The position numbers and the translations under genes were made by a program. A stretch of 10,280 nt of DNA from a virus (taxonomy: Duplodnaviria; Heunggongvirae; Uroviricota; Caudoviricetes), in IMG/VR virus record IMGVR_UViG_2690316323_000007; one strand, given 5' to 3'. This document shows positions 1 through 9,141 of the stretch, in pieces (within the stretch, counting starts at the first letter, position 1; each line of letters starts with the position of its first letter). The notes below the pieces were generated by a model that was not told the origin of the DNA, searched no databases, and worked only from the letters and a program-made list of their open reading frames with translations.

Positions 1-1251
1 GTGCTTACCGATACAAAATTAAAAAACCTCAAGCCGCAGGACAAACTGTACAAGGTCTCCGATCGTGACGGGCTGTATGTAGCTGTGCTTACGTCAGGCA
101 CGGTCTCGTTTCGCTATGACTACCGTATCAACGGTCGCCGCGAAACACTGGTAATCGGGCAGTATGGGCGTGACGGTATCAGCCTGGCAGAAGCGCGGGA
201 AGAACTGATTGCTGCAAAGAAGCTGCTTAAAGCAGGCCAGTCGCCGGCTGCGGCTAAACGTGACGGTATCAAAAAGATTCGTGGTGCCGAGACATTTGCG
301 GTACATACCGACAGTTATATGAAACACGTCATCCTGGCTGAAAGTACCCGCGCAATGAAACAGGCGGTGATCGACCGTGACATACTTCCGGTTCTTGGCA
401 ATAAAATGATGGCTGAAATTACCACATCGATGGTTCGTGATTTGTGTGACCGGATTGTCGAACGCGGTGGCCGGGCAACAGCAGTGCAGGCCAGGGAGAT
501 CATCAGTAGCGTATACCGTCACGCCAATGACCGTGGTCATGGTTTGTTTAATCCTGCGGCTGACATTAAACCTTCGTCTATCGCCATATTTAAACCACGA
601 GAGCGAACACTGACACCAGAAGAAATTGGCCTGTTCTTCCGCACGCTGGATGCCATTGGTGCTATGGGCACTATGAAAATGGCTTTAAAGCTGGTGCTTA
701 TCACTATGGTTCGTAAAGGCGAATTCACCAATGCAACGTGGGATGAAATAGATTTTAAAAAATGGACATGGACAATTCCTTCAGACCGCATGAAGGGAAG
801 CCGGACGCACGTTATTTACCTGCCTAAACAGGCACAGGATATATTGGTTGGGTTGCAGATGTGCGCTGGTGGAAGTGAATATCTGGTTCCTGGTCGTTAC
901 AATTTCCGGAAGCCATTATCTAATGCCGCGCTGAACTCTCTGATCGACAGAACGGTGAAAATAATAAATGAAGATGGTGAGCATATTCAGGACTTCACCG
1001 TACACGATATGCGCCGTACAGCAAGTACGTTGTTGCATGAGGCTGGTTATCCTTCAGACTGGATTGAAAAGGCTCTGGCACATGAGCAGAAAGGTGTGCG
1101 CGCCGTATATAACAAAGCGGAATACGCCAGACAGCGCGCCTACATGTTGCAGCAGTGGGCCGATATGATTGATTCCTGGATTGACGGGGAGCATACGGAT
1201 CTGATTCCGTTCTCCCCGTCGAAGTTTGAGAAATGGATGGCGGGGGAATAA
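1..1251 (+). CDS. Tyrosine recombinase / phage integrase, P4-like family (416 aa, GTG start at window position 1; upstream context not visible)
   Basis: N-terminal arm-type DNA-binding region (MLTDTKLKNLKP...DGLYVAV...FRYDYRINGRRETLVIG) and C-terminal catalytic region with H-x-x-R (HDMRRTASTLL) and a candidate catalytic Tyr (VRAVYNKAEY). Stop TAA at 1249-1251. Because the ORF starts at base 1, the true start could lie further upstream. Confidence 0.9.
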   Translation: MLTDTKLKNLKPQDKLYKVSDRDGLYVAVLTSGTVSFRYDYRINGRRETLVIGQYGRDGISLAEAREELIAAKKLLKAGQSPAAAKRDGIKKIRGAETFAVHTDSYMKHVILAESTRAMKQAVIDRDILPVLGNKMMAEITTSMVRDLCDRIVERGGRATAVQAREIISSVYRHANDRGHGLFNPAADIKPSSIAIFKPRERTLTPEEIGLFFRTLDAIGAMGTMKMALKLVLITMVRKGEFTNATWDEIDFKKWTWTIPSDRMKGSRTHVIYLPKQAQDILVGLQMCAGGSEYLVPGRYNFRKPLSNAALNSLIDRTVKIINEDGEHIQDFTVHDMRRTASTLLHEAGYPSDWIEKALAHEQKGVRAVYNKAEYARQRAYMLQQWADMIDSWIDGEHTDLIPFSPSKFEKWMAGE

Positions 1252-1258
1252 TTTTGCC

Positions 1259-1276
1259 CGGCACATCCCTGTGCCG
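1259..1276. terminator. Short hairpin between convergent genes (CGGCACA-tccc-TGTGCCG); possible weak bidirectional terminator
   Basis: Perfect 7-bp inverted repeat with a 4-nt loop in the 31-bp gap between the integrase stop (1251) and the Bro-N gene stop (1283). No clear U-tract on either side, so terminator function is uncertain. Confidence 0.3.
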
Positions 1277-1282
1277 CCGCCG

Positions 1283-1975
1283 TCAGAAGAACTCTGCTTT
1301 GTCGTTGATGTACTCCGCGTGCGTCTGGATATCACGCAGGCATTTGCTCACACCAACGATGTAGCAGAACATGGTGGTCAGCTCCGCCGCCGCGCCCGAT
1401 ACGTCGTGCCCGTCTTCCTGTAACTGGTTCAGCAGATTCATCAGCAGTGAGTTCTCCGTCAGGCCGAGAACACCAGACGGAGAATGAATCAGGCTACGGT
1501 AGCCGGGCTTCAGCGGGGCGCTGTAGGTTTTGTTCTCTATCTTCATTGCCTGCATCACTGCTGATGCTGTGGCGTTGGCTACCTGGTCGGCAACCATCTT
1601 TATGCGTTCTTCCTGCGGGAGCGAGTTTTTAATGTAACTTCCGGTGCGGCGGATCTGAGGAAGAACCTCACCTGTAACCCATTCAAGAAATCTGAATGCT
1701 CTCGTTCCCTCAGTCATTGCCTCTTTGCAACGCAGAATAAGGATGTAGAGACCTGATTCTGAAACGATGGATAGTTCTTGTATTCCACCAGGGGTCTGTA
1801 TTGAATACAGCCCCTTTTTGTTCCAGCCTTTTTTATCAAGTTTTCTCGCTTGTGTAACATCAATATTCAAAGCATTGCACACATCTTTGGTGACAAACCA
1901 AGGTTCTCCGTCAATCATGAACATACGGATCTGGCAGGATGACTCAAAGGAAAAGATGGAAGGTTTGGTATTCAT
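1283..1975 (-). CDS. Bro-N domain protein (antirepressor-like) with a C-terminal domain that is paralogous to the 85-aa protein at 3359..3616
   Basis: Six-frame ORF 1283..2020 trimmed to the internal ATG (1975..1973 on minus), which has an RBS (AAGGTGA) about 6 nt upstream. The N-terminal half matches the Bro-N pattern (FSFESSCQIRMFMIDGEPWFVTKDVCNALNI...GLYILILRCKEAMTEGTRAFRFLEWVTGEVLPQIRRTG). The C-terminal ~70 aa align with the small protein at 3359..3616. Confidence 0.85.
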   Translation of the reverse strand: MNTKPSIFSFESSCQIRMFMIDGEPWFVTKDVCNALNIDVTQARKLDKKGWNKKGLYSIQTPGGIQELSIVSESGLYILILRCKEAMTEGTRAFRFLEWVTGEVLPQIRRTGSYIKNSLPQEERIKMVADQVANATASAVMQAMKIENKTYSAPLKPGYRSLIHSPSGVLGLTENSLLMNLLNQLQEDGHDVSGAAAELTTMFCYIVGVSKCLRDIQTHAEYINDKAEFF

Positions 1976-2001
1976 GGCGATCACCTTTGTAGTTAGGTTA
2001 A

Positions 2002-2034
2002 TCACCACCGCTGAGACCAATCAGATGGTGGTGA
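2002..2034. promoter_or_regulatory. Inverted repeat TCACCACC-N17-GGTGGTGA in the Bro-N gene upstream region; candidate operator
   Basis: Perfect 8-bp arms at 2002-2009 and 2027-2034, located about 27-60 bp upstream of the Bro-N start codon on the minus strand. Function is inferred from position only. Confidence 0.3.
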
Positions 2035-2162
2035 ACTGTGCAGAGTTGGTCTTACCGGCTACAAAGGAACCCGGCGCACCTTTCGGTGCCCCCACACAGC
2101 CCACCATAGAATAGGTGCGCTTTACACATAAAAAAACCGCTTATGCGGCATATGTGCCTCTG

Positions 2163-2216
2163 TAGTAATCCGGGAGACCAATCCCGGCACTGGATTTTGC
2201 CAGTGCCCGATTACTA
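2163..2216. other. Nested stem-loop element in the divergent intergenic region (candidate RNA structure or protein-binding site)
   Basis: Inner stem CCGGCACTGG (2184-2193) / CCAGTGCC(G) (2200-2208) with loop ATTTTG; outer arms TAGTAATC (2163-2170) / GATTACTA (2209-2216). The 9-mer GAGACCAAT occurs both at 2175-2183 inside this element and at 2013-2021. No flanking U-tract, so it is not a classical terminator. Confidence 0.35.
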
Positions 2217-2335
2217 TGGCACAAGAGGAGTGCGATGTAAATTTACCGCAAAGGTAATAATAAATGCATAACTCACGTTATTTCAACCCTATGTGGTTTG
2301 ATTGATCCCATTTCAGAAAATACCTGCCTATTTTT

Positions 2336-2365
2336 TTGCCAGTATGCGTATACTTTCGATAGAAT
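2336..2365 (+). promoter_or_regulatory. Candidate sigma70 promoter for the two-gene operon (TTGCCA-18 nt-TAGAAT)
   Basis: -35-like TTGCCA at 2336-2341 and -10-like TAGAAT at 2360-2365 with an 18-nt spacer, about 55 bp upstream of the ATG at 2419. Confidence 0.45.
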
Positions 2366-2418
2366 GTTTACCCTAGAGGTAGTTGGGGGGGCCCGTGAAC
2401 ACGAAGAGAGCTACAGTA

Positions 2419-2838
2419 ATGCAGCATTTGAGGAAATCAGAAAAAAATAAAGACCATGAAATATTGAGTAAGGCCATTGTTCGGGCTTCCAATAATACTG
2501 TTATACCTCATGCTGAAGAGACTGGACAGAAATTTCTTATTCGGTATTTCACTGAAAATAGTGCAGTTGAGGAGATTTTAAAACATCAGGGAGGGGAATT
2601 TAAATGTGGAAAACTGGCAGATTATGTTCGTCGTGAAACGTCTGAACAAGAAGTATATTATGCTGATATTAATCATAAGTCAGGTGTGAAAATTGTAATA
2701 GGCTATTACACAACTCCCAAAAATGTTATGCATGAGGTCCCAAAGATGTCCGTCGAGAAATCTCATGCAATCTCGCGCAGGATGTTTGCACGCACTGCCG
2801 AAGATATGGCTCAGGAGCTCTACGACGATGCTGAATAA
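2419..2838 (+). CDS. Hypothetical protein (139 aa), first gene of a translationally coupled pair; candidate antitoxin/partner of the downstream gene
   Basis: ORF 2383..2838; start assigned to ATG 2419, which has an RBS-like AAGAGAG about 9 nt upstream (alternatives: GTG 2395, TTG 2383). No family recognised by eye; acidic C-terminus (ELYDDAE). Its stop TAA (2836-2838) overlaps the downstream start inside the string ATGCTGAATAA. Confidence 0.7.
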   Translation: MQHLRKSEKNKDHEILSKAIVRASNNTVIPHAEETGQKFLIRYFTENSAVEEILKHQGGEFKCGKLADYVRRETSEQEVYYADINHKSGVKIVIGYYTTPKNVMHEVPKMSVEKSHAISRRMFARTAEDMAQELYDDAE

Positions 2839-3334
2839 ATTCCAGGGGTTGGTTCACCCTGGAATTTTTGGGAAGGACCCTGAGCTAATACCTATCAAAA
2901 ACGCGTTCATAGATCACTGGCGCTACGGTCATCATAAGGATTTCGGAAAGGACACTCTGTTTCGGGATCCACCGAAAGAGATGCTGGAATATCACATACG
3001 CCACGTTCACGTAAACATCGGAAACTATACTGACAAGTTTGGTGAGAGCGGTACGGAACAATGCTGGAAAAACTGGGCATCCGGGAAGAAAGACAAGACC
3101 ACCAACAAGCATAAAAAAATACCAACCAGTGATGTGTATGTGATTTATCTTGTAACGTCTGAGCGACATGCGTTTCTTCTGGATTACTGGGATGAGCCAG
3201 CACACAAAAAAGTAGAAATTGACGAACAAAAACAAAAACTTCTTGTCGAGTGTGACAGAATTTTGCGGCTGAAAAATTTAGAATCCATGCCGCGCGATGC
3301 AAGTTTGTGGGACCCGGAATTTTACGACTGTTAA
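2828..3334 (+). CDS. Hypothetical protein (168 aa), second gene of the pair; weak resemblance to YafO-family type II toxins (tentative)
   Basis: ORF 2723..3334 trimmed to ATG 2828, which overlaps the upstream stop by 11 nt. Recalled YafO-like features: FGKD/FGRD-type motifs (IFGKDPE, DFGKDTLFRDPP), HIRHVHVNIGN, and a C-terminal block VYVIYLVTSERHAFLLDYWDEPAHKK. Confidence refers to the CDS call; the family assignment alone is about 0.4. Confidence 0.7.
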   Translation: MLNKFQGLVHPGIFGKDPELIPIKNAFIDHWRYGHHKDFGKDTLFRDPPKEMLEYHIRHVHVNIGNYTDKFGESGTEQCWKNWASGKKDKTTNKHKKIPTSDVYVIYLVTSERHAFLLDYWDEPAHKKVEIDEQKQKLLVECDRILRLKNLESMPRDASLWDPEFYDC

Positions 3335-3335
3335 T

Positions 3336-3360
3336 GGCCGCTCTTGCGGCCTTTAAATTT
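3336..3360 (+). terminator. Candidate rho-independent terminator after the two-gene operon (GGCCGC-tctt-GCGGCC followed by TTTAAATTT)
   Basis: Perfect 6-bp GC stem (3336-3341 / 3346-3351) with a 4-nt loop and a T-rich tail, sitting between the convergent stop codons at 3334 and 3359. Confidence 0.45.
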
Positions 3361-3616
3361 ACCGGGTTTGTTTTCGTAATTGTTCGGCACAATAGTCGAG
3401 ATGTGTTTGCAGATCCCGCATAGACATCTGTGAGCTGGTGACGTAGTTAATCAGTGCAGTCAGTTCGGCAAGTGGGCCATCGACATTAAATCCATCCTTA
3501 TCGAGATCCCGGAGTAATTTCATCAAGTGCGATCCCTCCACCAGTGACCTGACGCCTCCCGGCGTGTGAATCCTTTCGGTAAATCCGTCTTCCAGTGGAT
3601 AGTGATACTGCTGCAT
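3359..3616 (-). CDS. Small protein (85 aa), stand-alone paralog of the Bro-N protein C-terminal domain; predicted SOS-regulated
   Basis: ORF 3359..3634 trimmed to the ATG at 3616 (MQQYHYP...), which has an RBS GGAGAAG about 7 nt upstream; the ATG at 3634 lies inside that RBS. Shares about 40% identity by eye with residues ~160-231 of the 1283..1975 protein (IH[ST]P.GV..L.E.S.LM.LL..L..DG..V.G..AELT...Y......RD[IL]QTH). A LexA box sits 20 bp upstream. Confidence 0.7.
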   Translation of the reverse strand: MQQYHYPLEDGFTERIHTPGGVRSLVEGSHLMKLLRDLDKDGFNVDGPLAELTALINYVTSSQMSMRDLQTHLDYCAEQLRKQTR

Positions 3617-3635
3617 CTTATCTTCTCCATGCAAT

Positions 3636-3655
3636 AACTGTATATTTATACAGTA
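3636..3655. promoter_or_regulatory. LexA (SOS) box: AACTGTATATTTATACAGTA
   Basis: Matches the E. coli LexA consensus TACTGTATATATATACAGTA at 18 of 20 positions, with both CTGT and ACAG half-sites intact and 8-bp spacing. Lies immediately upstream of the minus-strand small gene (start 3616) and within the divergent region shared with the tail fiber gene. Confidence 0.75.
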
Positions 3656-3691
3656 TCAAATAATTTGTTTGCTATCCAGCACGTTTTGCAA

Positions 3692-3758
3692 ATTACCTGA
3701 AAGGTAATATCTGTTCGTATTCACACCCTTTCTATCCATATGTGGTTTTTCAGGTAAT
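3692..3758. promoter_or_regulatory. Cluster of GGTAAT half-sites upstream of the tail fiber gene (palindrome ATTACC-tgaaa-GGTAAT plus a further AGGTAATA copy)
   Basis: Palindrome at 3692-3708; AGGTAATA repeated at 3702-3709 and 3752-3759; TACCTGAAA (3694-3702) is the reverse complement of TTTCAGGTA (3748-3756). No good sigma70 -35/-10 pair is apparent for the tail fiber gene. Confidence 0.35.
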
Positions 3759-3811
3759 AGAATAACCAGATATGCGGCGCAACGGGTGCTGCGACTATCT
3801 GGAGATTTAAC

Positions 3812-6787
3812 ATGACGGTCTCAACCGAAGTTGACCACAACGAATACACAGGTAACGGCGTTACGACATCATTTCCGTATACCTTTAGGGTTTTCAAGGA
3901 ATCTGATCTGGCAGTACAGGTGGTTGACCTTGACGAAAATATCGCTGTGCTGGCTCTTGATACTGATTACACTGTCACTGGGGCTGGTGGATATAATGGC
4001 GGTAATGTAATTCTGTCGAAGGCGTTAGCTAACGGTTATCAGATTTCTATATCACGAGAGCTACCGGTTACGCAGGAAACTGATCTGCGAAATCAGGGAA
4101 AGTTTTTCGCTGAGGTGCATGAAGACGCGTTAGATAAGCTGACGATGCTGATACAGCAAGTCCGCAGTTGGTTTAGCCTGGCGCTGCGCAAACCATCATT
4201 TGTGGCAAACTATTACGATGCTTTGAATAATTACATCCGCAATTTGCGCGATCCTTCCAAGCCTCAAGATGCAGCTACAAAGAATTATGTTGATAATATT
4301 GTTAATGTGAATATTAACAGGACATTACGGGTTCCAGATAATTTTATTGAACCACTTCCTCCAGTTCATTTACTGGAAGAAACTGTCATTGGTATCGTCA
4401 ATGGTAAACCTATAGGTGTACCTGTGCCTTCTGGCAGTGCCGCAGATGTTCTTCTGCAATTATCTAGCGCAGGAGAAGGAAAAGGAGATGCATTAATTGG
4501 TGTAAGGCAGCCATTTGCCGGGGCTGTAACTATAACTCAGCATGAAAACAATGCTCTTTTCTTAAATGTAAAACAATTCGGAGCAATTGGGGATGGGAAA
4601 TATCATCCATTATCTGAGAGGTTTTCTTCAATTTCTGAAGCAAAATCCTTATATCCTTTTGTTGACTCATTATCTCAGTCAATAGACTGGGCCGCGTGGC
4701 AAGCTGCCATTAACACAGGAAAGGTTATTTATGGTACTGATAATGCGTATGTAATAACGGATACGTTAACACCTGTTTCTGGTGGTGGGATAATTGGTCT
4801 TGGTGTGGGCAAATGGGTCTCTGGATATACTGCAACATTTGCTCCTGATATTACCACAGGGACCACATTCCTGATGTACGGTGTAGGAAATAAAAAATAT
4901 ACTGTAGATTGTGTTTCTAATATGGATGTTAGTGGTGGTGTGGTTTCTAATCCATCTTCCGAAGACCCGTATACAACAACGGCACCTGCGTCATCATATG
5001 ATTTATTGGATTTTACTAACGGTGATGCTAATGGGGCTACAAGAGCCACGCTTAAACCATTCTCTGCCGCAATATTGATGCCAGAGACAGGATGTGTTCG
5101 CCTTGAGAACTTTCGTATTGTTCCATATTTCAATGGGCTGGATGGTTATAAAGACATTGCAAATACCGGTCTTGGCGATGAGTGGGATGTAGGTATTTGG
5201 TCACGTGCGTCTTTTGGCAATGAATACCGCAATTTGCAGGTGGTTGGATACTGGCGCAAGACGGCACTTTTAAAAACGAACATTCCTGTATCTGGCACGC
5301 TGGCCGCTCAGGGCGAGGATGAAAACTATTATCACTGTAGATTCCAGGGATTCAAGGGTGTTTCGATCCGCGCCCATGATGTATTCCGAATTACAGCGGT
5401 AACGTCCAGCACTATCGAAATCCCATGGTCATCAAGCCACACCTTCGAAACGTCCGGGGTTTTAAGATCGGGAGGCAGGAATTTCACTTATTCAGGATTA
5501 TCCGTATCCGGTGATAAGTTAGTATTTACTGGAGTGTCTAACGCTTCTGAGGCAACAGTAGGTTCTACTATACGGCGAAATGACATAGATAACTTTGGTA
5601 TGGCGGGAACGCAATTTTTCGATTGCTACATTACCAGCCTGTATCACCACACACATCTGCTTGCCACATCGCAATACCTGTCTCAGCCATTCAGCCGGCC
5701 ATCAGAGTGTATGGAGGTTTCAGGGGAACCAGTTCGCGGTGTACAGGTACATGCAGGAACCATTCAGGGATGGGATGATGTTCTTATTCATCTGCATGAC
5801 TGTGGAAATATGAACTTTTACAGTACATATTTCGAAAGCCAGCCAGCATATGTAACTATAAATGGTGGTAATGCTATTGGTTATGGAGCACGTATGATAG
5901 CTTCCAGGCAATCAACAAGCTCATTACCATATGCAGCAGGGAATACTCGAGTGCTTAGAATGGTCGGGTGCTCTGAAGGCAATGGCGTTGACTGGGGTCC
6001 TGTATTTAACAACTATACAGGAGGAAGATATAATTCTGGAGACGGTGTATTTAACCCCCGCGATGCATTTGTAGACCATAAATCTCTTCCTGAGCAGTCA
6101 GGAGGTGAGTCAAGACTCGTATCACAAAAAGGAAATGCCAGAGTAGTATGTGGTGTTGGTAAAACTGTACTGCTTGGACCAACTTCAGGAGATTGTAATT
6201 TACAGAGTAATACTGGAAGTTTAAATATTAGAAGTGGGATAAGAGTAAGAATCGGTCACGCTGATGGAACAGACTGGTGGTTGGCAGATGCTAATAAAAT
6301 AGCTCCTGTTGATGATAATGTTAAAGCTATTGGACAGCCATCAAACAGATGCTCTGTTATCTATGCAGGAACCGGGTCAATCAATACGTCAGATGAAACT
6401 CTTAAAACAAGATATGATATTCTTAATGCAGAGCGTGATGCCGCTATTGAAATAAAGTCAGTCATCTATAAATTTAAATTTAATGACTCAATTAATCACA
6501 AAGGAATTGAGTCGTCCAGGTATCATTTTGGCGTTGGCGCTCAAACCGTAGGGGATATTCTTAGAAAGCATGGTTTAAACCCTGAGCAATATGCTTTTTG
6601 GTGTTACGATGAATGGCCTGACGTATGGGATGAAGAGGTGATAACTGAAGAGAGCACAGATCCTGATACAGGTGAGAAAATTTATTCTCAATATAAAACA
6701 GGAGATATGATTCTTGTAAAAAAAGCAGGAGGACGCTACGGAATTCGTTATGACGAATTAGCCATGTTTATATTAATGTCAATGTAA
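3812..6787 (+). CDS. Tail fiber / tailspike protein (991 aa) with T7 gp17-like N-terminal adaptor, central pectate-lyase-like beta-helix (putative depolymerase) and C-terminal intramolecular chaperone (peptidase S74-like) domain
   Basis: ATG 3812 with GGAG 7 nt upstream. N-terminus (YTGNGVTTSFPYTFRVFKESDLAVQVVD...DYTVTG) resembles podovirus tail fiber N-terminal domains. Central region has the beta-helix start motif (NVKQFGAIGDGK...DWAAWQAAINTGK). C-terminal ~130 aa (SDETLKTRYDILNAERDAAIEIKSVIYKF...YHFGVGAQTVGDILRKHGL) resembles the self-cleaving chaperone of endosialidase-type tailspikes. Confidence 0.85.
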   Translation: MTVSTEVDHNEYTGNGVTTSFPYTFRVFKESDLAVQVVDLDENIAVLALDTDYTVTGAGGYNGGNVILSKALANGYQISISRELPVTQETDLRNQGKFFAEVHEDALDKLTMLIQQVRSWFSLALRKPSFVANYYDALNNYIRNLRDPSKPQDAATKNYVDNIVNVNINRTLRVPDNFIEPLPPVHLLEETVIGIVNGKPIGVPVPSGSAADVLLQLSSAGEGKGDALIGVRQPFAGAVTITQHENNALFLNVKQFGAIGDGKYHPLSERFSSISEAKSLYPFVDSLSQSIDWAAWQAAINTGKVIYGTDNAYVITDTLTPVSGGGIIGLGVGKWVSGYTATFAPDITTGTTFLMYGVGNKKYTVDCVSNMDVSGGVVSNPSSEDPYTTTAPASSYDLLDFTNGDANGATRATLKPFSAAILMPETGCVRLENFRIVPYFNGLDGYKDIANTGLGDEWDVGIWSRASFGNEYRNLQVVGYWRKTALLKTNIPVSGTLAAQGEDENYYHCRFQGFKGVSIRAHDVFRITAVTSSTIEIPWSSSHTFETSGVLRSGGRNFTYSGLSVSGDKLVFTGVSNASEATVGSTIRRNDIDNFGMAGTQFFDCYITSLYHHTHLLATSQYLSQPFSRPSECMEVSGEPVRGVQVHAGTIQGWDDVLIHLHDCGNMNFYSTYFESQPAYVTINGGNAIGYGARMIASRQSTSSLPYAAGNTRVLRMVGCSEGNGVDWGPVFNNYTGGRYNSGDGVFNPRDAFVDHKSLPEQSGGESRLVSQKGNARVVCGVGKTVLLGPTSGDCNLQSNTGSLNIRSGIRVRIGHADGTDWWLADANKIAPVDDNVKAIGQPSNRCSVIYAGTGSINTSDETLKTRYDILNAERDAAIEIKSVIYKFKFNDSINHKGIESSRYHFGVGAQTVGDILRKHGLNPEQYAFWCYDEWPDVWDEEVITEESTDPDTGEKIYSQYKTGDMILVKKAGGRYGIRYDELAMFILMSM

Positions 6788-6797
6788 TAATAAATGC

Positions 6798-6837
6798 AAT
6801 AACCCCGAATAAAACAGCGGGGTTATTGTTATTATAA
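6798..6837 (+). terminator. Rho-independent terminator downstream of the tail fiber gene
   Basis: 10-bp stem AATAACCCCG (6798-6807) / CGGGGTTATT (6818-6827) with a 10-nt loop, followed by the T-rich stretch GTTATTATAAT. Confidence 0.6.
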
Positions 6838-7080
6838 TAATGATCTTAACTTCTTAAATGATATTTATATGCACTTGGATTATTAAATCTATATTATGCC
6901 TGTTATTTATGTGTTCTGTTATATGTTTTGCAGGCACTGTTGGCAGCATTAAAGGAAATTGTATTTATGGCGAAATAGCTGGTATCGTGTTTTTATTGTG
7001 CGTAAAAATAACAGACTGCATATATTATTGTATAAAGTTTTGGAAATGAAAACACTCAAACTTACCGCTGTGGATATGTT

Positions 7081-7109
7081 TTGACCATCGCGAATTGGAT
7101 TGGTAATAT
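7081..7109 (+). promoter_or_regulatory. Strong sigma70-like promoter upstream of the lysis cassette (TTGACC-17 nt-TGgTAATAT, extended -10)
   Basis: -35 TTGACC at 7081-7086, 17-nt spacer, -10 TAATAT at 7104-7109 preceded by TG at 7101-7102. Located about 85 bp upstream of the first lysis gene. Confidence 0.55.
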
Positions 7110-7120
7110 TGGGTAACAAA

Positions 7121-7136
7121 AAACCATAAATGGTTT
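7121..7136. promoter_or_regulatory. Perfect 16-bp palindrome AAACCATAAATGGTTT just downstream of the predicted transcription start; candidate operator
   Basis: Arms AAACCAT (7121-7127) and ATGGTTT (7130-7136), separated by AA. Sits between the promoter -10 and the RBS AGGAGG (7161-7166). Confidence 0.4.
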
Positions 7137-7193
7137 ATCATGCGTAATGCTTTACTGTTCAGGAGGTAGTTATGCATATAAACGGTGGAAAAC

Positions 7194-7598
7194 ATGTCAG
7201 CTCAACTAACCAGTGAAACTTTAAATCAGTGGCTTAGCATGAGTTCTTTGGCGGCAGTGATAGCAGGAGTTCCTCCTGAGGTTGCTTTGGGGTCTTTGGC
7301 TGGGGCGGTGATTTTTGTTACCTCTGCGGTAGAGTATCCCATTCGTCGTCGCGTGCTCTTGTCGATGCTTAGCTTTCTCTGCGGACTTCTATTCTACAAA
7401 CCAGCAGCATCAATTCTTATCGGCATAGCCAGCCTGATCCCTACAATCACACAGGATTCTTTCGAGAAAGGGATTGTTTTCTCTGCCGGTGCATTTGTGT
7501 CAGCAATCGTCGCTGTGCGAATTGGGATCTGGCTCTATCACCGTTCCGATAATCCACGCGAGTTAATTCCGGGGAGAAAAGACGATGGTAACTCATGA
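7194..7598 (+). CDS. Holin-like membrane protein (134 aa from ATG 7194; 137 aa if GTG 7185 is used), about 4 predicted transmembrane segments
   Basis: Hydrophobic stretches LAAVIAGVPPEVALGSLAGAVIFV, VLLSMLSFLCGLLFY, ASILIGIASLIPTI and IVFSAGAFVSAIVAVRIGIWLY, with a charged C-terminus. First gene of an overlapping operon with the endolysin. Two in-frame candidate starts (GTG 7185, ATG 7194). Confidence 0.65.
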   Translation: MSAQLTSETLNQWLSMSSLAAVIAGVPPEVALGSLAGAVIFVTSAVEYPIRRRVLLSMLSFLCGLLFYKPAASILIGIASLIPTITQDSFEKGIVFSAGAFVSAIVAVRIGIWLYHRSDNPRELIPGRKDDGNS

Positions 7599-7893
7599 GC
7601 TTTTTTTGCTTATCACCAATGCGGTTATTTGCGCCGGTATAGCAGTTCGAGTTGCCACATTTCGGAGAAACGGTTCTCAACACAGGCGATGGGGTGGGTG
7701 GCTTGCTTATTTCCTGATTGTTGCTGCGGCCAGCATTCCAGTTCGTGTCGCTTATGCAATCTGGTTACGCACGCCAATGGCTGTGGATTTATCTGAGGTC
7801 ATTATCAACGCTGTCATGCTTGCCGCGGTTATTAAAACACGCGGTAACGTTGTTCAGATTTTCAAAATATCGAGGTCTAAACATGGAGATTAA
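7585..7893 (+). CDS. Second small membrane protein of the lysis cassette (102 aa; holin or antiholin-like)
   Basis: ATG 7585 with GGGGAGA 6 nt upstream; overlaps the upstream gene's stop by 14 nt in a different frame. About 3 hydrophobic segments ([53 protein letters not shown]). Its stop (7891-7893) overlaps the endolysin start. Confidence 0.65.
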
Positions 7894-8512
7894 ACAATTC
7901 CAGCGAGCTGCTGGTATTAGCGAGGCGCTGGCCGCACGCTGGTTCTCGCATATAACTTCTGCGATGAAAGAGTTTGGTATCAGCAAACCAGAAGATCTGG
8001 CAATGTTTATTGCTCAGGTCGGGCATGAGTCTGTGGGCTTCACCCGGTTGCAGGAGAATTTCAACTACAGCGTCAGCGGACTGGCTAACTTCGTTCGGGC
8101 TGGGCGTCTCACTCAGGGGCAGGCTAATGCACTGGGGCGACGTGCTGGTGAGCCACCATTGCCACTCGAGCGCCAGCGAGCGATCGCCAATCTGGTGTAC
8201 AGCAAACGCATGGGGAACAATGCCCCTGGTGACGGCTGGAACTACCGTGGGCGCGGACTTATCCAGATTACCGGTTTGAATAACTATCGTGACTGTGGAA
8301 ACGGTCTTAAGGTTGACCTGCTGGAGAGTCCTGAACTGCTGGCGCAGGACGAATACGCGGCTCGTAGCGCGGCGTGGTTCTTCTCCAGCAAAGGCTGCAT
8401 GAAGTATACCGGAGATATTGCACGTGTAACTCTGCTTATCAATGGTGGCCGGAACGGCATTGATGACCGGCGCGCGCGATACATAACTGCCAGTAAGGTG
8501 CTGGCGGTATGA
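7883..8512 (+). CDS. Endolysin, glycoside hydrolase family 19 (chitinase-like lysozyme), 209 aa
   Basis: ORF 7718..8512 trimmed to ATG 7883 (GAGG 7 nt upstream). GH19-type motifs: [45 protein letters not shown]. No N-terminal transmembrane segment. Confidence 0.85.
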
Positions 8513-8991
8513 TCTGGGCATTCGCAAAAGCATACTGGAAACAGTTGGTTATCATGGCGATGCTTGCTGTTCTGGTCATATCAGGAGTTGTAGCCTGGAA
8601 TGCACACGGCAGTCGTCAGTACGATGCCGGGTATGCGCAGGCGAAGGAAGACCGCAAAGCTGAAGATGAGATAGTTCGTCAGCACTACGAACAGGAGAAA
8701 TCGATCAATGAACGTGAAGCGCAGCAGAGGATCGACCAGGCGCGCAATGATGCTCTTGATGCTGCCGCTCGCGCTGGCCGGTTGCAGCAACAACTCTTTG
8801 CCATCCGTGAGCAGCTCAGGCAGTATAACGCCATTGTCGGCGCTGGGACGTCAGCCGCAGACACCGGAGTTTTGCTTGCCGACGTGCTCAGCAAATCTCT
8901 CGAGAGAAACAGACAACTGGCAGAGTATGCTGACCGGGCAGCCGAAGCCGGAAGAGTCTGCGAAAAACAATACGACACCCTGACCAGATAG
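8509..8991 (+). CDS. Rz-like inner-membrane spanin (i-spanin), 160 aa
   Basis: Start ATG overlaps the endolysin stop (ATGA at 8509-8512). N-terminal transmembrane segment ([18 protein letters not shown]), a long charged/coiled-coil-like region ([38 protein letters not shown]), and a C-terminal Cys. Confidence 0.8.
8708..8983 (+). CDS. Rz1-like outer-membrane lipoprotein spanin (o-spanin), 91 aa precursor, fully embedded in the +1 frame of Rz
   Basis: Lipoprotein signal peptide with positive n-region ([12 protein letters not shown]), hydrophobic core and lipobox LAGC (Cys at residue 26); Pro-rich mature part. RBS-like AGGAG 10 nt upstream. An alternative start at ATG 8747 would give too short a signal peptide. 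Confidence 0.7.
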   Translation: MNVKRSRGSTRRAMMLLMLPLALAGCSNNSLPSVSSSGSITPLSALGRQPQTPEFCLPTCSANLSRETDNWQSMLTGQPKPEESAKNNTTP

Positions 8992-9072
8992 CATGGCATT
9001 TTTCATGGTACTGATTTCCGGTGACGGTATATAAAACGGTACTAGAAAAATGAAGTTTTGGAAAAATGTTAT

Positions 9073-9109
9073 CACTCAATTAGTTATGATTGTCGTAAAT
9101 AATTGAGTG
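9073..9109. repeat. 10-bp inverted repeat CACTCAATTA-N17-TAATTGAGTG in the junction region between the lysis cassette and the flanking genes
   Basis: Perfect arms at 9073-9082 and 9100-9109. Could be a protein-binding site or part of the island boundary; no function can be assigned from sequence alone. Confidence 0.35.
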
Positions 9110-9141
9110 GGAATGATTTGAACCCTGTACTATGAATGAAC

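Follow-up and report, generated by a model that had tools for sequence, protein, structure and literature searches.

Kim and Ryu are said to have described, in 2013, a lytic switch made up of Rep, Ant and LexA in the Salmonella phage SPC32H, and structures of Rep and Ant (PDB 5D4Z and 5D50) were reportedly obtained by Kim et al. in 2016. LexA operators of the Escherichia coli type are 20-bp palindromes of the form TACTGT(AT)4ACAGTA, with invariant CTG and CAG triplets 10 bp apart and a low heterology index. In a passage of a review that cites Kim & Ryu 2013 for SPC32H, self-cleavage of LexA allows Ant to be made and the lytic repressor is then inhibited (PMC7380047), and a passage of a second paper, which refers to crystal structure 5D50, describes how SPC32H Ant, by binding Rep, detaches the repressor from its operators (PMC9638917). 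The same logic is seen with Tum of phage 186, AntC of N15 and GfoA, GfhA and GftA of the Gifsy prophages, where a small antirepressor gene outside the immunity region is directly controlled by LexA and its product binds a non-cleavable repressor (PMC3121763). LexA-repressed antirepressors are recognised as an alternative to repressor self-cleavage in prophage induction, and the Ant family has been studied in SPC32H by both genetic and structural means. Further, mitomycin C (PMC9782041) and a microcin that damages DNA (bioRxiv 10.64898/2026.05.26.727859) both induce Uetakevirus prophages of E. coli.

The stretch of DNA analysed here (10,280 bp; hereafter the window) is identical to L016:10001-20280 (contig AOQY01000018.1, assembly GCA_000397685.1). 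We consider it very probable that a 20-mer in the window is a high-affinity LexA operator lying on the core promoter and start site of a small minus-strand gene, ant, the antirepressor gene of podoviruses of the phiV10, epsilon15 and SPC32H type (genus Uetakevirus), as part of a switch that has been orphaned in the window. With the SPC32H switch the locus shares an orthologous Ant (86.7% identity; E = 1.4e-46), the divergent orientation of ant and the tailspike gene, a LexA box at the same alignment columns and a palindrome resembling a Rep operator upstream. It differs in its host (E. coli), in its phiV10-like lineage, in the Bro-N gene and the cassette resembling a toxin-antitoxin pair to the left of ant, and in belonging to a deletion remnant of 9.3 kb that lacks rep, which leaves the switch without a target in cis. 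Thus, an Ant homologue of about 85 amino acids, the position of ant outside the immunity region and divergent from the tailspike gene, and a LexA box at the predicted promoter are all present, whereas a cognate Rep is not encoded in the same element. By descent the locus thus belongs to the SPC32H-type switches, but its circuit is incomplete. The mechanism itself is already known from the orthologous SPC32H system, and the locus is ordinary in that respect. The coordinates of the features are given in Table 1.

Table 1. Features of the window, in window coordinates
Feature	Position	Strand	Basis or remark
Integrase, intact	1..1251	+	Pfam Arm-DNA-bind_3, Phage_int_M, Phage_integrase; left end of remnant
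Bro-N protein	1283..1975 (L016 11283-11975)	-	Pfam Bro-N, E = 2e-13
Two overlapping genes (147 aa, 168 aa; toxin-antitoxin-like pair)	2395-2838, 2828-3334	+	Second homologue: RefSeq 'type II toxin-antitoxin system YafO family toxin'
GC-rich hairpin GGCCGC-TCTT-GCGGCC	3336..3351	+	Canonical plus-strand terminator between the converging YafO-like gene and ant
ant, 85-aa antirepressor	3359..3616	-	Orthologue of SPC32H Ant, phiV10 p24 and epsilon15 gp19
Shine-Dalgarno sequence GGAG of ant	3625..3628	-	Read directly; 8 nt before ATG; invariant in 10/10 aligned phages
LexA operator (SOS box)	3636..3655	.	18/20 to consensus, weight-matrix score, conservation
Inferred ant promoter	3650..3678	-	-35 TGGATA (3678-3673), 17-nt spacer, -10 TACTGT (3655-3650)
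Perfect palindrome ATTACC-N5-GGTAAT	3692..3708	.	Rep-operator-like; conserved in 10/10 aligned phages
Tailspike gene, 991 aa	3812..6787	+	phrog_1171 tail spike, E = 0; divergent from ant
attR core ATTGAGTGGGAATGATT	9102..9118	+	Exact match to vB_EcoP_ZX5 attB/attP core (PMC9782041); right boundary

The LexA box and the predicted promoter of ant

Window positions 3636-3655 read AACTGTATATTTATACAGTA on the plus strand, and alignment with the LexA consensus TACTGTATATATATACAGTA gives two mismatches, at positions 1 and 11 only, so that 18 of the 20 positions agree. This is the sole match to the consensus at three or fewer mismatches in the whole 10,280-bp window, none of 200 dinucleotide-preserving shuffles contained such a match, and a perfect CTGT-N8-ACAG occurs nowhere else in the window. 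We also scored the window with an approximate weight matrix derived from 22 E. coli LexA sites of the published compilations; on this scale the box reached 26.7 bits and had a heterology-style index of 1.97, which puts it on a par with the strongest chromosomal boxes of E. coli, those of umuDC and tisB. The highest score among the 200 shuffles was 17.8 bits, 9 bits below that of the box. The runner-up in the window, TAATGTGAATATTAACAGGA at 4303-4322, was considered as a second LexA site and dismissed as a chance match, given its score of 11.5 bits (less than the best shuffle), its index of 12.7 and its location inside the tailspike ORF. The box therefore has the features of an E. coli-type LexA operator, and it resembles the SOS boxes of umuDC, tisB, dinD, sulA and recA in that its 20-bp palindrome contains CTGT-N8-ACAG, is AT-rich at the centre, would overlap a promoter and lies about 20 bp from an ATG. 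Unlike those chromosomal boxes, it is carried by a prophage and would control a phage regulator rather than a repair gene.

The ORF called mechanically for the small gene spans 3359-3634 and begins with TTG; the real start of ant is the ATG at 3616, which is preceded by GGAG and aligns with the annotated start of SPC32H ant. Read along the minus strand, the order is TACTGTATAAATATACAGTT, 19 nt that include GGAG, and then the ATG. Distances of 19 bp for the dinI homologues of Gifsy and 21 bp for sulA are listed elsewhere, and a separation of 19 nt is typical of genes under tight LexA control (PMC8072944 Table 1). An earlier note on this DNA, made from the letters alone, had put forward the 18/20 match, its distance of about 20 bp from the small minus-strand gene and its place in a divergent region shared with the tailspike gene, and had named weight-matrix scoring as a check. 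Each of these points holds, the box ending 19 nt before the ATG of ant, but it lies 157 bp from the tailspike ATG (3812). What is almost certainly a true regulatory site had thus been picked out from raw sequence.

To assess conservation, we aligned the intergenic region of ten sequences, namely those of the window, phiV10, SPC32H, epsilon15, the Enterobacter phages Tyrion and BUCT554 and four Klebsiella phages. The box falls at the same alignment columns in all relatives (the SPC32H version is TACTGTATGTTTATACAGTG), and TACTGT-N8-ACAGT does not vary among the phages of E. coli, Salmonella and Enterobacter. In the Klebsiella phages one half-site reads ATGT in place of CTGT, giving ATGT-N8-ACAG, and their box is weaker (16-17 bits); all orthologous boxes score between 16 and 26.6 bits on the approximate matrix. 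Identity is 85% over the box columns and 95% over the CTGT/ACAG core, compared with 73% over the remaining intergenic region, and against the Klebsiella phages the corresponding values are 80-85% for the box and 55-60% for the remainder. Conservation of a box between diverging flanks is the pattern that would be expected of a site under selection. The divergent order of ant and tailspike gene recurs in phiV10, 65FD, SPC32H, epsilon15, Tyrion, BUCT554 and the four Klebsiella phages, and the DNA around ant is phiV10-like, at 91-98% identity.

These results bear on whether the palindrome could be an AT-rich inverted repeat that arose by chance, or a site for another protein, and is not bound by LexA. 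The region is indeed AT-rich intergenic phage DNA, but not one of the 200 shuffles came within even three mismatches of the consensus, the score stands well clear of theirs, CTGT-N8-ACAG is kept across four host genera while the flanks diverge, and the orthologous gene is reported to be LexA-controlled in the review passage cited above (PMC7380047). We give this explanation hardly any credence and conclude, from the sequence comparisons, that 3636-3655 is a real and strong site and almost certainly the functional LexA operator of ant.

Pairs of -35 and -10 hexamers were then scored in each of the ten aligned sequences with an approximate sigma-70 matrix, under the requirement that a pair occupy the same alignment columns. 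TGGATA-17-TACTGT was the only pair found at the same columns in 10/10 sequences, with a mean of 5.2 bits compared with 1.9 or less for the others. The assignment for ant scores only about 6 bits on this approximate matrix, and a stricter scan for consensus promoters returned none for ant. The left half of the LexA box doubles as the predicted -10 hexamer, and the predicted start site, at about 3643, is within the box; the box would thus overlap the ant promoter, and LexA bound there would occlude RNA polymerase. Two other assignments were discarded: TTGATA-17-TATTGC would place the start of transcription inside the Shine-Dalgarno sequence, and TATAAA, a candidate -10 hexamer within the box, is not conserved.

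The product of ant and the proposed switch

When Ant was compared with the PDB by phmmer, a single match was obtained, to chain E of 5D50, 'Anti-repressor protein' (E = 1.4e-46, residues 2-84). The protein falls in phrog_450 (E = 7e-48) and shows, in addition, a weak similarity to the C-terminal portion of a PHROG named 'anti-repressor'. A tblastn search with Ant against 50,697 phage records, at E values up to 1e-3, returned 35 records, which comprise Uetakevirus genomes, four unclassified Klebsiella phages with the same locus and one phage contig. Ant is 100% identical to the proteins of phiv142-3 and HEMP4, 98.8% identical to phiV10 p24, 86.7% identical to the product of the gene annotated 'ant: anti-repressor protein' in SPC32H and SPC32N, 83.1% identical to epsilon15 gp19 and 60-64% identical to the Klebsiella phage proteins. 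No curated family was assigned to Ant in scans of Pfam and NCBIfam, and a sub-threshold Pfam match to DUF724 was dismissed as noise. Judged by these relatives, the small gene is an antirepressor gene, which the earlier note had not recognised.

We note that 186, N15 and Gifsy are not among the 35 records retrieved by tblastn and that the Pfam and NCBIfam scans of Ant returned no Tum, GfoA or AntC family. Ant would accordingly be a protein that works like Tum, GfoA/GftA and AntC but belongs to none of those families. Further, the window differs from the Gifsy antirepressor loci in having no dinI partner gene beside ant. The loci of phiV10 p24 and epsilon15 gp19 have the same architecture as that of the window.

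The site, its strength and conservation, the gene order and the orthology of Ant to the crystallised Ant are observed directly in the window and its relatives, and LexA occupancy, induction by the SOS response and the interaction of Ant with Rep are inferred from the work on SPC32H. By analogy with that system, LexA would sit on the box in an undamaged cell and block RNA polymerase. On DNA damage, RecA-stimulated self-cleavage of LexA would free the promoter and Ant would be synthesised. In an intact prophage, Ant would then bind the non-cleavable Rep and break up its DNA-binding tetramer, leading to lytic growth. In the remnant, which has no rep gene, SOS-induced Ant would be made without a cognate target in cis. 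The claim that the box places the small gene under DNA-damage control within a prophage induction circuit is thus supported by the orthology to SPC32H ant and by the conservation of the box.

Existing annotation could be improved. Most E. coli, epsilon15 and Klebsiella records (e.g. NC_007804 for phiV10, NC_004775 for epsilon15 and MW722083 for ZX5) continue to list the ant orthologue as a 'hypothetical protein', and the LexA box is annotated in none of the phage records (these three and others). In the epsilon15 record, only repressor and IHF sites are shown in the intergenic region. The ant CDS of Tyrion has been called from an internal start, at 165 nt instead of 261 nt. Downstream, the GC-rich hairpin listed in Table 1 sits 8 nt past the ant stop codon, and a rho-independent terminator is annotated in the corresponding position of the epsilon15 record, beyond the end of gp19.

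The tailspike side of the intergenic region

The perfect palindrome on the tailspike side of the LexA box has near-copies (2242-2258 and 2367-2383) in the DNA from which the Bro-N gene and the toxin-antitoxin-like pair diverge, and the window as a whole contains five matches to ATTACC-N5-GGTAAT at two or fewer mismatches compared with 0.4 expected. In the epsilon15 record, the homologous 17-mer is annotated 'protein_bind: repressor, lysogeny', with three more repressor sites beside the rep gene and one among the replication genes. On the tailspike strand, a TAGAAT hexamer resembling a -10 element (3761-3766) is overlapped by a conserved GGTAAT half-site at 3757-3762. The intergenic region therefore looks to be Rep-controlled on its tailspike side, and the distribution of the palindromes suggests that Rep also controls the promoters of the accessory genes (Bro-N and the toxin-antitoxin-like pair). 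With Rep absent from the remnant, the accessory and tailspike promoters may be derepressed.

This arrangement is relevant to whether the LexA box acts in both directions, so that it would also, or mainly, repress the divergent tailspike-lysis unit and DNA damage would directly switch on the right-hand part of the island. The box does lie within the 195-bp divergent intergenic region, and SOS boxes shared by divergent genes are known, for example at ssb/uvrA (PMC8072944). However, whereas it abuts the Shine-Dalgarno sequence and ATG of ant, it is well over a hundred base pairs from the tailspike start codon; promoter scans gave no plus-strand promoter-like site overlapping the box, and what is conserved towards the tailspike gene consists of Rep-operator sequences (3692-3708 and the half-site at 3757-3762), an indication that Rep, not LexA, is the regulator on that side. 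We find no support for a direct action of LexA on the tailspike gene and regard a bidirectional box as very unlikely. The earlier note had suggested that DNA damage may be coupled to expression of the island. Any such coupling would run by way of Ant acting on Rep; direct control of the tailspike gene by LexA finds no backing, and in the remnant, where there is no rep, SOS induction of ant cannot induce the island in the usual way.

Towards its C-terminus, the tailspike itself gives weak Pfam hits to the endosialidase C-terminal region and to the intramolecular chaperone domain Peptidase_S74 (residues 825-922). Its gene is mosaic, the first ~480 bp (to about 4295) being shared with phiV10 and SPC32H and the rest different. 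An O-antigen acetylase gene, which in phiV10 and SPC32H lies between the tailspike gene and the holins, is absent from the window.

The remnant that carries the locus

Window positions 1-9118 (L016:10001-19118) lie within a 9.3-kb, att-bounded, phiV10-like prophage remnant at the 3' end of guaA. The 17-bp core ATTGAGTGGGAATGATT occurs exactly twice, once as attR and once as attL at the guaA 3' end (L016:9794-9810), and phage homology ends at 9118. The gene order is guaB, guaA, int, the Bro-N gene, the genes for 147 and 168 amino acids, ant, the tailspike gene, two holin genes, the endolysin gene, a DUF2514 spanin-like gene, yfgI and yfgH. The remnant has thus retained int (the integrase is 88% identical to SPC32H Int over residues 1-414), both att cores, the LexA-ant cassette, the Bro-N/Ant-like gene, the tailspike gene and the lysis genes. 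Every gene between the att cores is accounted for, and none of them is rep, xis, a recombination or replication gene, a terminase gene or a virion gene other than that of the tailspike; a tblastn search with SPC32H Rep at E values up to 10 likewise found no Rep homologue in the window.

We note that residues 164-237 of the Bro-N protein align with residues 2-75 of Ant at 43% identity (BLASTP, E = 1e-16). Its C-terminal ~75 residues are thus Ant-like, which would make this a second, larger gene of the antirepressor type, and the presence of an Ant-like domain in the Bro-N protein implies that many Uetakevirus genomes encode two or three Ant-domain proteins. In the study of vB_EcoP_ZX5, the Bro-N protein was the only one tested as 'anti-repressor' (PMC9782041).

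Full-length relatives at the same site carry int, an AntA-type gene, a methylase gene, RecT, rep, replication genes, terminase and virion genes, and then the Bro-N/ant region. Window positions 1200-1555, which hold the end of int, the 3' ~300 bp of the Bro-N gene and a terminator, are 95% identical to L014:11200-11558 of a full-length prophage, where the match is to the end of the int-proximal AntA-type antirepressor-like gene. In full-length prophages the same Bro-N gene end is also found next to ant (99.7% identity in strain N10). The ends of the Bro-N and AntA-type genes therefore form a direct repeat in full-length prophages, and recombination between them probably deleted ~30 kb to give the remnant. 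The int/Bro-N junction of the remnant occurs in 0/5,426 complete E. coli genomes and, by an exact search, in none of the species-representative genomes, and the deletion therefore looks rare and recent. A different short arrangement, int-AntA-...-ant, is present in L017 and suggests that the deletion event recurs.

Phage satellites (P4-like, PICI and cfPICI) carry an integrase, their own regulator, a replication module (primase/helicase and ori) and genes for exploiting a helper, and lack lysis and tail genes. The earlier note had likened the locus to the induction circuits of prophages and satellites alike; the satellite comparison fails, since the element has no replication module but does have lysis genes (holins, endolysin and the spanin-like gene) and a tailspike gene, and recombination between the ends of two paralogous genes accounts for the int-proximal junction. 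We class the element as a remnant that has lost Rep by deletion, not as a satellite or an intact prophage.

With the operator taken as functional, the orphan Ant might nonetheless act in trans during the SOS response and inactivate the Rep of a co-resident or incoming phiV10-type phage. The ant gene, its Shine-Dalgarno sequence, its promoter region and the LexA box are all intact, and the protein does not differ from that of the functional phages phiv142-3 and HEMP4. Antirepressors are known to act on non-cognate repressors in Salmonella, as in the prophage crosstalk shown for the antirepressors of Gifsy and Fels (PMC3121763), and phiV10, phiv142-3, ZX5 and O157 typing phage 10 carry an identical repressor (PMC9782041). 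If this were so, co-resident or incoming phages of the phiV10 type could be driven from lysogeny by the orphan Ant on DNA damage. However, the junction is absent from the 5,426 complete E. coli genomes and the species representatives, so that the deletion looks rare and recent and the remnant does not look like a module retained by selection. We therefore view action of the orphan Ant on related phages as speculative and, on balance, doubtful. We think it less probable still, and improbable, that the remnant has been kept because its SOS-inducible Ant acts in trans, in crosstalk or as a decoy inducer, or that, with Rep absent, its tailspike and lysis genes are expressed as a domesticated module. 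On the preferred reading, a LexA-controlled ant orphaned by deletion, such remnants leave SOS-inducible antirepressors without a repressor in genomes, where they could influence the induction of related phages.

The two overlapping genes between the Bro-N gene and ant gave no match to Pfam or NCBIfam when scanned as the overlapping mechanical ORFs 2383-2838 and 2723-3334, and the PHROGs that they match are of unknown function only. In strain N10, a second toxin-antitoxin-like pair is present just upstream.
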